This document shows positions 5,695 to 23,993 of a stretch of 64,000 nt of DNA, one piece after another. The DNA comes from an uncultured Eubacteriales bacterium (GTDB lineage Bacteria; Bacillota; Clostridia; Christensenellales; UBA1242). The DNA lies in the NCBI GenBank assembly GCA_948607205.1, contig CAPERS010000005.1, positions 834 through 64,833 on the forward strand. Reading direction: 5' to 3'. Made by a program: the position numbers and the translations under genes. The stretch's first letter is position 1. Each line of letters begins with the position of its first letter. The notes below the pieces were generated by a model, which worked only from the letters and a program-made list of their open reading frames with translations, searched no databases and had not been told where the DNA came from.

Positions 5695-6693
5695 CTAATC
5701 TTCCCACTGAGAAACCATTTCAATGAGTTTTGAACTGGCTGTCACTTTTTCAGTTTGTTCATTTTGAGTTTCAAACTTTTCGGTTGACTTAGTTTCAGTT
5801 TCAATTTCTTCTGTCATTTCAGTTTCTTCTGAAATTTGGTCAGGCATTTCATTTCGTTTGTCTGATGTTTCTGTCATTGCTGTTTCAACTTCACTTTTCT
5901 TTATTTCAGTTTGAGTGCCTGCACTCTCAATTGCTTCTTGGTTTATCACTTTGTTTTCTTCTTTGCGTTCATTGTTTACTGAAGGAATTTTGCTTTCGCT
6001 TGCCAAAGTTTGACTTTCTTTTTGAGCGTCATCAATTGCTTTTTCGTTTTTATCTGAATTTTGCTCTTTCACTCTTTCTTGTGCATTAGTTGTGTTTTCA
6101 TCTTGTTGACTTTCTTTGTCGCCATCATTTCCAGAGCCTGAAATGTCTTTGTCTGGTTGTGGTTCATTATCTTCTTCGTTTTCTTTTATTTCAGTTTGCT
6201 TTTCTTCGCTTTTTTCAATTTCAACTTCAATCTTGTCTTTTTCCACATGTTCAACGTCTGTCAAGAAATCATAAATCTCGTCAAAAGTGTTGTCAAGGTC
6301 AAGATAATAGCATCTGCCGTCAAATTTGCCATTGTTGCCACGAATAACATTCACGCCATAAGAGTTTGGCTGAATGTGAATAAGAAGTTGGTCAAAGTCC
6401 ATTCCACTTGCTGATACAGTTTTGCCATAGTCAAACTTGACCCAATAACCCTCTTTGAAATCTTCCATTGTCAACTTGTGAATTGCCACAGCAAACGCTG
6501 GCATTTGACGAGAGCCTGAAATTGCCTCAACAAAAATCTCGTCAAAGCGAGTCTGGTCACTTTCACTAACAAAAAATTCTTCACCGTCTTTATAGAATTG
6601 AACCACATTAGCCTCACTGAAAACATCTGGCATGACACCTGCCTGAGCAACAAACATAACAGGAACTGCCATCAATAAAAAAAGAAATTTCAT
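5695..6693 (-). CDS. secreted protein with acidic low-complexity C-terminal tail
   Basis: 332-aa ORF with a GGAGG RBS and a signal-peptide-like N-terminus (MKFLFLLMAVPVMFVAQAG). An N-terminal part of about 150 aa is followed by about 170 aa of E/K/T/Q-rich low complexity. Confidence 0.6.
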   Translation of the reverse strand: MKFLFLLMAVPVMFVAQAGVMPDVFSEANVVQFYKDGEEFFVSESDQTRFDEIFVEAISGSRQMPAFAVAIHKLTMEDFKEGYWVKFDYGKTVSASGMDFDQLLIHIQPNSYGVNVIRGNNGKFDGRCYYLDLDNTFDEIYDFLTDVEHVEKDKIEVEIEKSEEKQTEIKENEEDNEPQPDKDISGSGNDGDKESQQDENTTNAQERVKEQNSDKNEKAIDDAQKESQTLASESKIPSVNNERKEENKVINQEAIESAGTQTEIKKSEVETAMTETSDKRNEMPDQISEETEMTEEIETETKSTEKFETQNEQTEKVTASSKLIEMVSQWED

Positions 6694-20965: not shown

Positions 20966-21043
20966 TAGTAAAATATTTAATAAGGTTGCTATTAAAAAAT
21001 AGCAGAAATTCTGCTATTTTTTCTTTCTGTTAAAATTAATCTT

Positions 21044-22372
21044 TTATTTCACAACCTCGATTGAATATGCGGTTGGGACATTTTCAATTTTTACCTTATC
21101 TGAAATTTCAACACCTGCAATAGCATAAACTTCATTTCCGCTTGCAAGAACTGGAAGAGTTCCGCGTTGGCGCTGAGGAATTTTCTTGTCAATCAGATAA
21201 CTTTTAAGTTTTTTGCTTCCGCCACCAAACTTTTCAAACATATCTCCGTCTTGACGAAATCTCCAAGTTGCATCTTTTGGCACTTTGCGATAGTCAAGAA
21301 TCAGCACATTTTCGCGTGGTGTGAAATCTTTGACGCGTCTGACAATCACTTTGCCAAAGCCTTTAACTTCAAACTCACCACACTTGAAAGGTTGGTCAAG
21401 GGTTGTTTCTTCTTCGTGGCGGTTGGCGATTGTGAGATAGTCATATTCTTTCACTGCATACGCCTCAAAAGGCAGATAGATTCTTTTGCCGTTTGCACCA
21501 TTGACGGCAAGGTCTTTGATTGCCATAATGTGCTTTCTTTCGATATCATAAGTGATTCCAATACGCTTGAAAGTTTTGAAAAGCATACGCACTACAACTG
21601 GATTTTCGTAAAGGAAATATGAAGTTGGGATGCGGGCAATCTTGCCGTCAATCATGACAGCGTCAGCATAAGTGTGAGCGTTTATGTATTCATCATCTTC
21701 CTTGATTGCCTGAGCGAAATTGTTTATGCTTTCAACTGCTTTTGGCCAGCGCTTTGTCACCTCTTTCATAAGCACATTGCGAACAAAGTTGCGGTTGTAT
21801 GAATTATCGTCATTTGTGTAGTCATCGTTATAGTCAATTCGGTTGAGGGCGATGTATTCCATAATCTCTTCTTTGCTTGTTGTCAGCATTGGGCGAATGT
21901 AAATTCCGTCGCGAATTGGTTCCATTCCTTTTGCGCCTGAAACGCCAGAGCCACGGAAGATGTGCATAAGGATTGTTTCGGCTTGGTCTTGCATATGATG
22001 TGCGAGTGCAATCTTGTCAACAAGTCCTTTTTTGATAAGCGCCTTGAAAACGCCATAGCGACCATCTCTTGCAGCAGTTTCAAGAGAAACGCCTCTTTCT
22101 TTGGCAAGTTTTGGCGCGTCAATGCGGAATTTATAGAACCTCACGCCAAGTTCTCTCGCTTTGGCACGCACAAGGTCTGAGTCCATATATGAATTTTCTC
22201 TTATGCCATGGTCGACATGAATGGCAACCACTTCAATGTCAAACTTGTTTTGGTTCTCAGCGAGATAGTTGAGAAGTGCCATTGAGTCGCTTCCGCCACT
22301 TACGCCAACACCAACACAATCGCCAGCTTTAAACATTTTGTTTTCTTTGATAAACTCTTCAATTCTTTCCAT
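21044..22372 (-). CDS. tilS: tRNA(Ile)-lysidine synthetase
   Basis: PP-loop VGVSGGSDSMALL; about 442 aa. GGAG lies 8 nt before the second ATG (MERIEEF, 22372), so the track start 22390 is less likely. Confidence 0.9.
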   Translation of the reverse strand: MERIEEFIKENKMFKAGDCVGVGVSGGSDSMALLNYLAENQNKFDIEVVAIHVDHGIRENSYMDSDLVRAKARELGVRFYKFRIDAPKLAKERGVSLETAARDGRYGVFKALIKKGLVDKIALAHHMQDQAETILMHIFRGSGVSGAKGMEPIRDGIYIRPMLTTSKEEIMEYIALNRIDYNDDYTNDDNSYNRNFVRNVLMKEVTKRWPKAVESINNFAQAIKEDDEYINAHTYADAVMIDGKIARIPTSYFLYENPVVVRMLFKTFKRIGITYDIERKHIMAIKDLAVNGANGKRIYLPFEAYAVKEYDYLTIANRHEEETTLDQPFKCGEFEVKGFGKVIVRRVKDFTPRENVLILDYRKVPKDATWRFRQDGDMFEKFGGGSKKLKSYLIDKKIPQRQRGTLPVLASGNEVYAIAGVEISDKVKIENVPTAYSIEVVK

Positions 22373-22565
22373 ATCACATTCTCCATACATTTAGCGCACA
22401 AAATGCGCTAAGTTCAATACAAAGATAGATTATACAACAAAAAAATATTTTCCGCAATAGCAAAAAAGAAAAAAATACCAAAATTTTGCTTTTTTATTTG
22501 AAAAATAAAGACAATTCAATAAATTTAATAATATTTCAAAGCACTTTAAATTTCGCAATAACGTA

Positions 22566-23400
22566 GCATAAACACAAAAAACAGCGAATGTCTTCGCTGT
22601 TTTTTCATACTAATATCGTGTAGTCAATTTTGATTGAGAAAGTGTCATCGTTGAATTCATAAGTTGAAGAGAAGTTCTCTCCCTCGATTGTGATGATTTC
22701 TGTGTTTATTGCCTCGTTGAATATCTCTTTGACATATTCAAAGTCATAGCCATACATTTCAAGTTCTTCGATGTTAAATGTTAGTGTGTAAGTTACATTT
22801 TCAATATCTTTATCATATAACGTCTCAACTTCGACACAAGTCATCATAAAGAAAAAGTCTTTAAGTGACAAAATTTCATTCTCAATTTCAATATAGAAAG
22901 TTGAAAAGTCAGGTCCTTCAGGTTCAACTGGCTCTGTTGGTTCAGTAGGAACTTCTGGCTCTTCAGGTTTTTCAGGTTCAGTTGGCAGTTCGGGTTCAGT
23001 TGGTTTTTCTGCATCATCAGGAACTTCAGGTTGCTCTGGAAGTTCTGGTTTTGTTGTGTCATTATCATCTGGAAGGTTTGGTTCATCTGGAATTACAATT
23101 GAATTATCGTCGTCACCACTTGGATTTTTATTTGGGTCGTCGTAACCCTCACTGTTTCCCGGCAAAAAGGAATCTGGATTGTCACGGAAGTATAGCCCTG
23201 TTCCAATGCCAACACCTGTTAAAATGATTATGGCAAGCATGATGCAAGCAAAAATTTTCCCTTTCATAACCAATAAAACCCTTTTTCTTTTTGACATAAT
23301 ATTACAAAATTCGACAAGACAAATTGTAAAAGTTTTCAACCCCAAAAGTCAAATGAATTAGCAATATTTTTTAAAAACAATTTAATATTTTTTGGATTTT
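22566..23400. repeat. left arm of a large inverted repeat of about 840 bp
   Basis: Reverse-complement match to 26844-27690. The 5' UTR, first ~75 codons, last ~30 codons and terminator are near-identical, while the middle has diverged. Confidence 0.85.
22605..23267 (-). CDS. membrane-anchored Pro/Glu-rich protein, paralog A
   Basis: Start at MKGKIFACIML (as in paralog B). It has a TM anchor, a PE(L/V/I)P-rich spacer and a C-terminal domain of about 95 aa ending FSIKIDYTILV. Confidence 0.7.
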   Translation of the reverse strand: MKGKIFACIMLAIIILTGVGIGTGLYFRDNPDSFLPGNSEGYDDPNKNPSGDDDNSIVIPDEPNLPDDNDTTKPELPEQPEVPDDAEKPTEPELPTEPEKPEEPEVPTEPTEPVEPEGPDFSTFYIEIENEILSLKDFFFMMTCVEVETLYDKDIENVTYTLTFNIEELEMYGYDFEYVKEIFNEAINTEIITIEGENFSSTYEFNDDTFSIKIDYTILV

Positions 23401-23586
23401 TTATTTTTTTTGGTTGATTTTACACAATAAGTGAGTATTCTTACGCTTTATTTCTCTTGTTTAGATTTATTTATCATGTCCGAAATATTTTATTGTTCAA
23501 ATTTAATCATAAATTTGAAATAGCGCTAAGCGACAAAAGGTGAGTATAATAAAAACAAAAAAATCACTCGGATAGAGTGACTCCTC

Positions 23587-23783
23587 TGGTAGAGATGAGT
23601 GGACTCGTTATGCGTAGCATGGCCGAGCACGCACACTTTCTCGACAGCTCCGACACCGACCCCCACCTTAGAAGAACCTGCCTTACGGCAGAACCTTAGC
23701 ACTGACTTTGTTCGCTGCGCAGGAACACCCTGATGCAAAGTTTCACTTTGCGTGTCACTTCGTGCCACAAGGTGGGGCAGGAT
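23587..23783 (-). ncRNA. unclassified GC-rich structured RNA with a tRNA-Ile-like 3' module
   Basis: The 3' end ...GAGTCCACTCATCTCTACCA is identical to the tRNA-Ile T-arm, acceptor and CCA, and TAAGGTGGGGGTCGGTG is also shared. Predicted structure includes a long-range 9-bp helix (23661-23669 with 23769-23777), a CTGCC-GTAA-GGCAG hairpin and a 7-bp GCAAAGT/ACTTTGC hairpin. A hairpin plus T-run terminator lies at 23551-23581. Confidence 0.5.
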
Positions 23784-23813
23784 AAAAAAATCCACTCAAA
23801 ATGAGTGAATCTC

Positions 23814-23890
23814 TGGTAGAGATGAGTGGACTCGAACCACCGACCCCCACCTTATCAGGGTGGTGCTCTAACCAGCTGAGCTACATCTCT
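23814..23890 (-). tRNA. tRNA-Ile (anticodon GAU), CCA encoded
   Basis: The minus strand AGAGATGTAGCTCAGCTGGTTAGAGCACCACCCTGATAAGGTGGGGGTCGGTGGTTCGAGTCCACTCATCTCTACCA folds as a cloverleaf. The anticodon loop is CTGATAA. A hairpin plus T-run follows at 23784-23810. Confidence 0.95.
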
Positions 23891-23964
23891 ATATATTGCG
23901 CAAACTTATCTTGTTGTTAAAGAGGGATATGTTTCAACAAGTTCTCTTAGTTAACGCATTATGA

Positions 23965-23993
23965 ATTATACATAATATCACAGCCATTGTCAA
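23965..23993 (-). promoter_or_regulatory. perfect consensus sigma-70 promoter (TTGACA-N17-TATAAT) upstream of tRNA-Ile
   Basis: The minus strand reads TTGACAatggctgtgatattatgTATAAT, about 70 nt upstream of the mature tRNA 5' end. Confidence 0.7.

Follow-up and report, generated by a model that had tools for sequence, protein, structure and literature searches.

The 64-kb window analyzed here (the whole stretch of DNA under study, on contig CAPERS010000005.1) belongs to an uncultured spore-forming member of the Clostridia from the mouse gut. It contains an intact gene for tRNA-Ile(GAU) that is directly followed by a GC-rich element of ~228 nt, in which pieces of the same tRNA recur between hairpins. 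This element, hereafter the unit, is the subject of our study; the stretch 23813-23556 runs from the terminator of the tRNA (terminator 1) through that of the unit (terminator 2). All features of the locus are read on the minus strand and are the following:

23965-23993, minus: promoter TTGACA-N17-TATAAT of the sigma-70-type consensus, 12/12 matches
23814-23890, minus: intact tRNA-Ile(GAU), called by ARAGORN and by Rfam (tRNA, 71.4 bits)
23862-23845, minus: anticodon arm CACCCTGATAAGGTGGGG within the tRNA-Ile(GAU)
23784-23813, minus: terminator 1, hairpin TTCACTC-ATTTT-GAGTGGA followed by T7, which travels with the following unit body
23769-23777, minus: CCCCACCTT, reverse complement of tRNA AAGGTGGGG and 5' strand of the closing helix P1
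23752-23768, minus: hairpin a, GTGGCAC-GAA-GTGACAC with one G-A mismatch; two-sided changes at 7/7 pairs in 44 distinct sequences
23735-23751, minus: hairpin b, GCAAAGT-GAA-ACTTTGC; two-sided changes at 7/7 pairs, 99.7% of cells paired
23726-23734, minus: ATCAGGGTG, an inverted repeat, reverse complement of tRNA CACCCTGAT (5' strand and loop of the anticodon stem)
23720-23732, minus: hairpin c of the predicted fold, CAGG-GTGTT-CCTG
23692-23719, minus: linker with an AGCGAA motif that is also present in six other units (7/39 in total)
23678-23691, minus: hairpin d of the predicted fold, CTGCC-GTAA-GGCAG
23654-23670, minus: TAAGGTGGGGGTCGGTG, identical to the tRNA segment that reaches from the anticodon loop to the T-stem 5' strand; 3' strand of P1
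23608-23653, minus: 46-nt replacement of the T loop (insert family i), in place of GTT
23587-23607, minus: CGAGTCCACTCATCTCTACCA, exact copy of the tRNA 3' end including CCA
23556-23586, minus: terminator 2, hairpin followed by T7, a diverged copy of terminator 1
23424-23547, minus: possible decayed starts of further units, ATACTCACCTTTTGT (23547-23533) and ATACTCACTTATTGT (23438-23424)

An initial annotation of this locus had recognized the perfect promoter, the intact solo tRNA, the GC-rich element behind it, the exact tRNA repeats, the replaced T loop, the absence of an acceptor 5' strand and a D arm from the unit and the similar hairpin plus T-run after both tRNA and element, and all of these stand. 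According to ARAGORN and Rfam, the tRNA-Ile(GAU) is the sole tRNA and the sole Rfam match across the 64 kb and thus lies outside any rRNA operon. The GC content amounts to 0.45-0.53 in the element versus 0.22-0.30 in its flanks. Two direct repeats of the tRNA are exact, one of 24 nt (23584-23607 = 23811-23834) and one of 17 nt (23654-23670 = 23838-23854), which is far beyond chance for an 800-nt region. The 143 nt between the tRNA end and the first repeated piece hold no real open reading frame (ORF): the 89-aa ORF called here, already suspected to be spurious, is indeed so, since it has no Pfam match and is interrupted by stop codons in homologous units. Identity of the displaced piece to the tRNA begins at U36/A37 of the anticodon loop, and we read TAAGGTGGGGGTCGGTG, on the basis of the comparisons between genomes given below, as the probable start of a displaced, older tRNA 3' fragment.

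What the initial annotation overlooked is that the 5' part of the unit is an inverted anticodon arm split by two hairpins. The reverse complement of the arm CACCCTGATAAGGTGGGG is CCCCACCTTATCAGGGTG, which returns in the unit as CCCCACCTT and ATCAGGGTG, with hairpins a and b inserted between TT and ATCAG; the 5' domain is assigned to the arm because its covariance model also matches the antisense strand of all tRNA-Ile anticodon arms. Next comes a direct copy, CACCCTG ... ATAAGGTGGGG, which is split by hairpin d and continues into the remaining tRNA 3' part. In the predicted fold, a five-way junction of P1, a, b, c and d, the inverted halves pair with the direct halves via P1 and c and so restore the anticodon-arm duplex of 18 bp, from the centre of which a, b and d branch off. 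In relatives hairpin c reads CAGGGTG..CACCCTG, the inverted arm being paired with the direct arm copy, and hairpin d stays paired despite change (CTTTTGC/GCAAAAG in L066, CTGT/ACAG in L050; loci are cited by their L numbers). The minimum free energy (MFE) fold of the 228-nt element (z -2.9) comprises the 9-bp CCCCACCTT/AAGGTGGGG helix, the GAA hairpin b and the GTAA hairpin d, three helices that had been proposed before and that recur across the family. The 123-nt core has a z-score of about -3.1 as RNA and of -3.2 to -3.8 as DNA on either strand, and the 46-nt T-loop insert alone has no significant structure (z -0.46). The long-range pairing proposed for GGCAC/TGAC with GTCA/GTGCT is not supported, as sequence changes in the close homologue L071 disrupt it; across the family, the GGCAC/TGAC stretch instead forms the local hairpin a.

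The unit is one member of a family found across gut Clostridia. When one genome per species was scanned with the last 20 nt of the tRNA, at least 119 loci came up, every one of them in uncultured gut Clostridia (labelled Christensenella, Onthoplasma, Caccovivens or Eubacteriales). The tRNA 3' end is present two to three times in 24 of them (with a spacing of 113-430 nt in 22/24), and the covariance model of the 5' domain detects 47 units in 39 loci. Among the 65 informative loci, where the tRNA is intact and 150 nt or more of downstream sequence are available, a unit adjoins the tRNA terminator in 24 and lies further downstream in one more, a tyrosine integrase takes its place in eight, and 32 have neither. 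An unbiased metagenome scan with an internal 21-mer yielded exclusively tRNA-Ile-linked loci. A dispersed miniature inverted-repeat transposable element was rejected, as the covariance model finds no second copy in the window. A phage or plasmid origin was rejected too: the tRNA 3' end has no match among IMG/VR contigs, the units have no blastn match in the phage or plasmid collections searched, the T-loop-insert pattern matched coding DNA only, and the 120 viral matches to a loose unit pattern are noise because none has the 3' strand of P1.

Known RNA classes do not cover the unit either. The Rfam comparison that the initial annotation had asked for gave, at gathering score, the upstream tRNA only (T-box, c4 antisense RNA, ROOL/GOLLD, self-cleaving ribozymes and other families included) and no family at E<10, where the best other match, HPnc0260, stays at 50 bits, below its threshold of 59, and owes its score to the antisense tRNA segment. 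ARAGORN and cmscan do not call the unit as tRNA or tRNA pseudogene, its anticodon loop and T loop being replaced, and ARAGORN and Rfam find no transfer-messenger RNA (tmRNA) in the window. A search of the literature retrieved general studies of tRNA fragments, attC sites and template switching, but no described equivalent. The family is undescribed, and neither Rfam nor the phage and plasmid collections searched contain it.

The loci with a repeated tRNA 3' end share a common layout, in which the tRNA is followed by its terminator, a spacer of 5-15 nt and the unit, whose start lies 35-60 nt past the tRNA end in most of them. The order within the unit is CCCCACCTT, hairpin a, hairpin b, (A)TCAGGGTG, the short hairpin c, a variable region ending in hairpin d, (A)TAAGGTGGGGGTCGGTG, a normal T loop or a replacement of 25-110 nt, GAGTCCACTCATCTCTACCA and a terminator; type-B units carry CUCAGG or GCCAGG in place of AUC. 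Arrays of two to three copies are common, the copies nearest the tRNA being consistently intact and the far copies degraded. By analogy with these decaying far copies, ATACTCACCTTTTGT and ATACTCACTTATTGT of the window, direct repeats 109 nt apart that resemble unit starts, might be the decayed starts of further units, an assignment we consider weak. In L247 and L071, the 3' end of the unit matches the local tRNA variant CAAGCCAACCA, which has a different acceptor stem.

Some variation around this layout deserves mention. The acceptor stem of the solo tRNA-Ile is unusual, AGAGAUG/CAUCUCU (A1-U72); a sister variant, UGGCUUG/CAAGCCA, is present in L247 and implied for L071 by the unit 3' end. tRNA-Ala(UGC) shares the locus in 36/120 loci and is located directly upstream of tRNA-Ile where checked (L032). 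The T-loop inserts of displaced fragments belong to at least five sequence families of 25-110 nt, some with their own covarying hairpins, and were found in the window, L050, L027, L087, L077, L103, L023, L057, L099, L088 and L089. Insert family i of the window has homologues in L050, L027, L087, L077 and L103, and its second hairpin varies in each while staying paired. Group I introns and split tRNAs were rejected, given that the inserts are too short (~95 and 46 nt), have no 5' exon and give no Rfam match, and none of the explanations weighed below accounts for the origin of these inserts. At far array ends a minimal 'type C' unit occurs, CCCACC(GAG..)ATGAGCGAAGCGAATTTAAGG..CACTCATCTCTACCA (L017, L050, L090, L023, L040, L084, L121); the GCGAAGC that it contains is an exceptionally stable DNA mini-hairpin. 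Upstream of the units in L008, L057 and L044 lies a separate long hairpin module, CCTAACCTTTATATCGTG..CACGATATAAGGTAGG, which is P1-like but different in sequence.

The hairpins have changed in sequence while remaining paired. In a covariation set of 44 distinct sequences, for which the alignment was fitted to the model and thereby somewhat favours the structure, 98.5% of the cells of hairpins a and b are paired compared to 26-51% in slid controls, and two-sided changes are seen at all 14 pairs. Double changes occur in 191 cells versus 49 in shuffles, and the unit cores have a median folding z-score of -5.2. The study of relatives and covariation called for in the initial annotation showed homologues and strong covariation of the hairpins, and this pattern speaks in part for one of its proposals in modified form, namely that the unit is a structured small RNA (sRNA). 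Such an RNA would derive from the tRNA-Ile 3' trailer by read-through of terminator 1, act in trans and consist of a five-way junction joined to a T-arm-derived domain and a CCA-bearing tail; it might serve as a decoy or sponge for tRNA-Ile-binding factors or as an immunity-type RNA of mobile elements, and the expansions in the anticodon and T loops would be ordinary growth of RNA structure. The consensus-perfect promoter, a terminator at the end of every unit, inserts located exactly in RNA loops and the GNRA loops of hairpin d (GUAA, GCAA, GAAA) speak in the same direction. We regard this explanation as a serious alternative, though on the unlikely side, for reasons that begin with the stems themselves.

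The composition of the fold is less RNA-like than its covariation suggests. Among 595 pair cells, only seven are G-U (1.2%), three are A-C and six are other mismatches, 97% being Watson-Crick; the excess of G-U over A-C, seven to three, is again a point for an RNA. Sense and antisense strands fold equally well, with a mean difference of 0.5 kcal/mol and the sense strand more stable in 17/39 cases. Of the predicted loops, 76/165 (46%) are of 3 nt, 29 of them of the GNA type, while four are GNRA. Watson-Crick-only stems, 3-nt loops and the lack of strand bias make us lean to a role of the selected structure at the level of DNA. In addition, template switching during replication can create or perfect hairpins and introduce compensatory changes in one step (PMC8794818), so that covariation alone is no proof of RNA function. 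The initial proposal of a novel tRNA-derived structured RNA is upheld as to novelty, homologues and covariation, while the acting form may be RNA or DNA; its variant of a tRNA mimic does not convince, as the acceptor 3' strand has no partner, the D arm is absent and the T loop is often destroyed.

Perfect Watson-Crick stems, minimal loops and absent strand bias also suit an explanation without any selection for structure. Repeated integration and excision at tRNA-Ile would leave displaced 3' fragments as inert scars, fold-back or template-switch errors at self-complementary arms would create the inverted repeats, and the apparent covariation would be a mutational by-product, in line with the capacity of template switching to create and maintain perfect hairpins (PMC8794818). 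Far copies decay, and the ends of islands are typically marked by displaced fragments of tRNA genes (PMC4383910). However, a single five-part architecture is kept in 47 copies with very different hairpin sequences, and the copies close to the tRNA are consistently intact. This makes inert scars distinctly unlikely, as does the apparent exchange of units between genomes described next.

For 23 inter-locus pairs with bodies at least 85% identical, the preceding 45 nt have a mean identity of 0.75 and the following 40 nt of 0.59; 20 of these pairs favour the preceding terminator side and three the following. Accordingly, L071 has the same body preceded by the same terminator type as terminator 1 of the window. 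In several species pairs, only the tRNA, the terminator, the body and the next tRNA piece can be aligned within 4.5-8 kb, with 91-99% identity, whereas flanks, where alignable at all, are 73-80% identical, which is unexpected for neutral scars. The promoter and leader of the close relative L050 are 99% identical to those of the window, yet its hairpins a and b are different, as after a swap of the 5' domain, and related metagenome strains have yet another arrangement, pointing to rearrangement at the strain level. Based on these comparisons, the family appears to be conserved, mosaic and horizontally exchanged. The notion of a decayed att-site remnant, the second proposal of the initial annotation, thus applies to the displaced 3' fragments at an integration hot spot, but not to the unit as a whole, which is no decayed singleton; both of its alternatives are partly supported and neither suffices alone.

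The same evidence weighs on the trailer-derived sRNA. A body that is linked to the preceding and not to the following terminator, near-identical tandem copies besides decaying far ones, and identity across unrelated flanks that resembles horizontal transfer all stand against it, as do the presence of the unit in only ~38% of the species loci and the lack of a promoter of its own, the unit starting 5-15 nt past the T-run.

The tRNA-Ile gene is also the target of larger elements. A family of 450-aa tyrosine integrases (Pfam Phage_integrase) is encoded in 16 loci, 150-2000 nt past the tRNA in 15 of them and accompanied by a MobL relaxase in eight, with attR-type junctions in the anticodon loop (..CTGATAAGG) and in the T loop. 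A hot spot with many displaced fragments would be expected if the units were scars. Integrative mobilizable elements that carry this integrase and MobL and attach at tRNA-Ile are present in L016, L019, L028, L030, L059, L070, L079, L086, L102, L118 and others, with arm-type direct repeats such as TTGACATCA or TTGTTGCAAAT. We rejected the unit as a deletion derivative of these integrase/MobL elements, because their AT-rich ends with direct arm repeats are unlike the unit body.

We propose, at a probability of roughly 40%, that the unit is a small mobile cassette whose insertion into tRNA-Ile restores the 3' part of this gene, and that the cassette's fold rebuilds the anticodon-arm duplex in the manner of an attC site. 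The stretch 23813-23556 would be part of a system of small non-autonomous DNA cassettes with the tRNA-Ile(GAU) gene as insertion site. The mobile unit would comprise three pieces, the tRNA 3' part (anticodon loop through CCA), the terminator and the hairpin body U. By recombining into the 3' part of the resident tRNA it would restore the tRNA and push the old 3' fragment downstream; in the window this fragment would be 23670-23587, now with a T-loop replacement. Repeated rounds of insertion would generate the arrays, in which older, far copies decay. Body U contributes an inverted 18-nt copy of the anticodon arm, split by a and b, and then a direct copy, split by d. Upon single-strand folding or palindrome extrusion these copies could pair and thereby rebuild the anticodon-arm duplex with the hairpins at its centre, a duplex that would correspond to the symmetric core site used by integrases targeting tRNA anticodon loops. 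The logic would be the same as in integron attC sites and in the forked hairpin of CTX phage. Insertion may proceed via a recombinase provided in trans or via Campbell-type homologous recombination; we infer both the use of the fold as a recombination site and the identity of the recombinase.

A mobile cassette of this kind explains why tRNA pieces are repeated exactly, why arrays form and their far copies decay, why the body is linked to the terminator in front of it, why unit 3' ends agree with the local tRNA and how units spread between genomes. Several observations nevertheless weigh against it. Neither an excised circle nor a precise empty site was observed, integrase and MobL are absent from the 64-kb window, and most units have no integrase or relaxase beside them. 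The integrase-bearing elements at tRNA-Ile, in turn, have ordinary AT-rich arms and carry no unit. As double-stranded DNA, the core copies are interrupted by 17-60 bp and are therefore not workable as a normal att site, and we know of no tRNA-targeting integrase that uses folded single strands, the literature search being likewise empty on this point. The mobile-cassette reading also leaves hairpins a, b and d, as well as the structured replacements of the T loop, without a specific role. Finally, the occasional GNRA loops and the slight excess of G-U pairs over A-C mismatches fit an RNA role, and transcripts, discussed below, cover the unit.

A more specific version holds that the units are folded single-strand or cruciform attC-like sites, which would rebuild the attB core of tRNA-Ile and let a tyrosine recombinase acting in trans insert minimal tRNA-restoring cassettes serially at a tRNA gene. 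We consider this version unlikely; if true, it would imply an integron-like cassette platform in Gram-positive gut anaerobes, with the tRNA gene as attI. Less likely again than this version is a natural 'three-quarter tRNA', an RNA made from the tRNA trailer that would resemble an external guide sequence.

Transcription was followed in metatranscriptome data. For the L023-type unit, contigs span the tRNA leader and the terminator and extend into the unit, with a depth of ~12 versus 2.8 in flanking genes in X22 and of 52-105 versus 18-33 in X46. A depth in the unit region at or above that of the flanks supports the trailer-derived sRNA and counts against a cassette acting as DNA. Yet, these assemblies are unstranded and can include DNA, and they therefore point to likely read-through co-transcription rather than demonstrating a discrete RNA. 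With regard to the window's own variant, the RNA runs sharing words with the window contain the tRNA only. If the mobile cassette is the correct reading, the RNA would represent terminator read-through from the strong tRNA promoter.

tRNA genes are classic landing sites of genomic islands, and leftover fragments are normally treated as inert bookmarks. The locus bears the corresponding signature, an intact tRNA whose 3' part, from the anticodon loop on, is directly repeated further downstream, but neither an integrase nor cargo lies between tRNA and fragment. Like the islands compiled in Islander (PMC4383910), it has a regenerated tRNA followed by direct repeats of the 3' part, fragment boundaries in the anticodon and T loops as the usual integrase crossovers, and integrase elements at the same tRNA elsewhere. 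Unlike those islands, the 'island' measures only ~130-160 bp without integrase or any gene, and consists of a conserved, hairpin-rich body with an inverted anticodon arm, besides structured T-loop replacements.

The closest architectural parallel is offered by attC sites, which comprise R''-L''/L'-R' boxes, a central spacer and a variable terminal structure (PMC2727003). An attC-like layout, known here from sequences and predicted folds, is present in the unit, although the boxes are the halves of the tRNA-Ile anticodon arm rather than RYYYAAC/GTTRRRY. As in integrons and in integrase-less attC clusters (PMC2727003), short imperfect palindromes are lined up in arrays that extend from one fixed double-stranded site. 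Conservation of sequence is confined to the terminal and inner inverted boxes, and elsewhere compensatory changes keep the structure. Folding of R''-L'' onto L'-R' would likewise imitate a double-stranded core with an irregular centre and a variable terminal structure. In contrast to attC sites, the central spacer gives off large hairpins on both strands, the cassettes consist of a tRNA 3' part and a terminator without a conserved ORF, no IntI-type integrase or attI/Pc is adjacent, and the hosts are Clostridia; single-strand recombination would, by analogy, be only putative here.

The forked hairpin of CTX phage is a second parallel for a target rebuilt by folding. On the attP(+) strand, two inverted copies of the host recombination site ~90 nt apart fold into this hairpin, which XerCD uses and which imitates the chromosomal target, and the uncleaved inverted arm stays beside the junction after integration. 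The unit likewise has two inverted target-site copies on one strand that may fold to imitate the target, but this target is a tRNA gene and not dif, no phage genome is involved, and hairpins are extruded at the centre in place of a bulge.

Among RNAs, tmRNA, the YrlA Y-RNA-like RNAs and the sRNAs of the 3' external transcribed spacer (3'ETS) share with the unit a tRNA-derived T arm, acceptor 3' strand and CCA, as well as transcription downstream of a tRNA and new helices at loop positions. The unit differs by its lack of an acceptor 5' strand and D arm, its frequently replaced T loop and its multicopy, mosaic and patchy occurrence. Repetitive extragenic palindromes and bacterial interspersed mosaic elements (REP/BIME), the pneumococcal BOX and Correia elements are similarly short, modular, intergenic hairpin units, often tandem and mosaic. 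However, every copy found of the present family is located behind tRNA-Ile or its fragments and contains tRNA sequence in both orientations.

In this family, displaced tRNA fragments are tied to a conserved, structured and horizontally shared body of ~110-150 nt that contains the target site in direct and in inverted orientation. Should the fold serve as a recombination substrate, structure-specific recombination of single strands would no longer be confined to integrons and the phages that exploit Xer/dif, such as CTX, but would include tRNA-targeting integrases in Firmicutes, and the growth of such hot spots would be explained. If an RNA is the product, these abundant but uncultured gut Clostridia would possess a tRNA-trailer RNA of a new class. 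Either way, members of the family are prone to be mis-called as ORFs, as exemplified by the 89-aa ORF, or as tRNA pseudogenes.

Control of the downstream genes is the remaining explanation to be weighed. The unit could act in cis as a leader, attenuator or insulator for genes such as ORF246 and tilS, by sensing tRNA-Ile via the anticodon-arm complement in a somewhat T-box-like manner or by plain terminator stacking. In its favour, AUCA, an Ile codon plus purine, lies inside the 9-nt anticodon-arm complement, the unit ends in a terminator, and tilS, encoding a tRNA-Ile-modifying enzyme, is found 1.2 kb downstream in the window. However, type-B units lack a conserved AUC, the complementary segment is engaged in pairing within the unit itself, the downstream genes are wholly different between loci, and, besides the absence of a T-box or other Rfam match, the unit carries CCA itself and not its complement. 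A functional tie to tilS was rejected: its adjacency is incidental, because the loci of tilS orthologues (L003-L007, 77-87% identity) have neither tRNA-Ile nor unit and the tilS segment of the window is inverted. We thus consider a cis-acting element highly improbable.

The neighbours of the locus comprise a short-chain dehydrogenase and DegV upstream, and a low-complexity membrane ORF and tilS downstream. An ORF of 246 codons at 22605-23345 has an N-terminal membrane anchor followed by a low-complexity region rich in Pro, Glu and Thr, without Pfam match, and a promoter-like site is located near it at 23352-23323. The tilS segment (21039-22498) is inverted compared to L003, where spoIIE and tilS are co-directional. 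L003 also carries, at 6317-6479, an inverted partial copy of 163 nt of the tilS 3' end, which could mediate such an inversion of the tilS segment.

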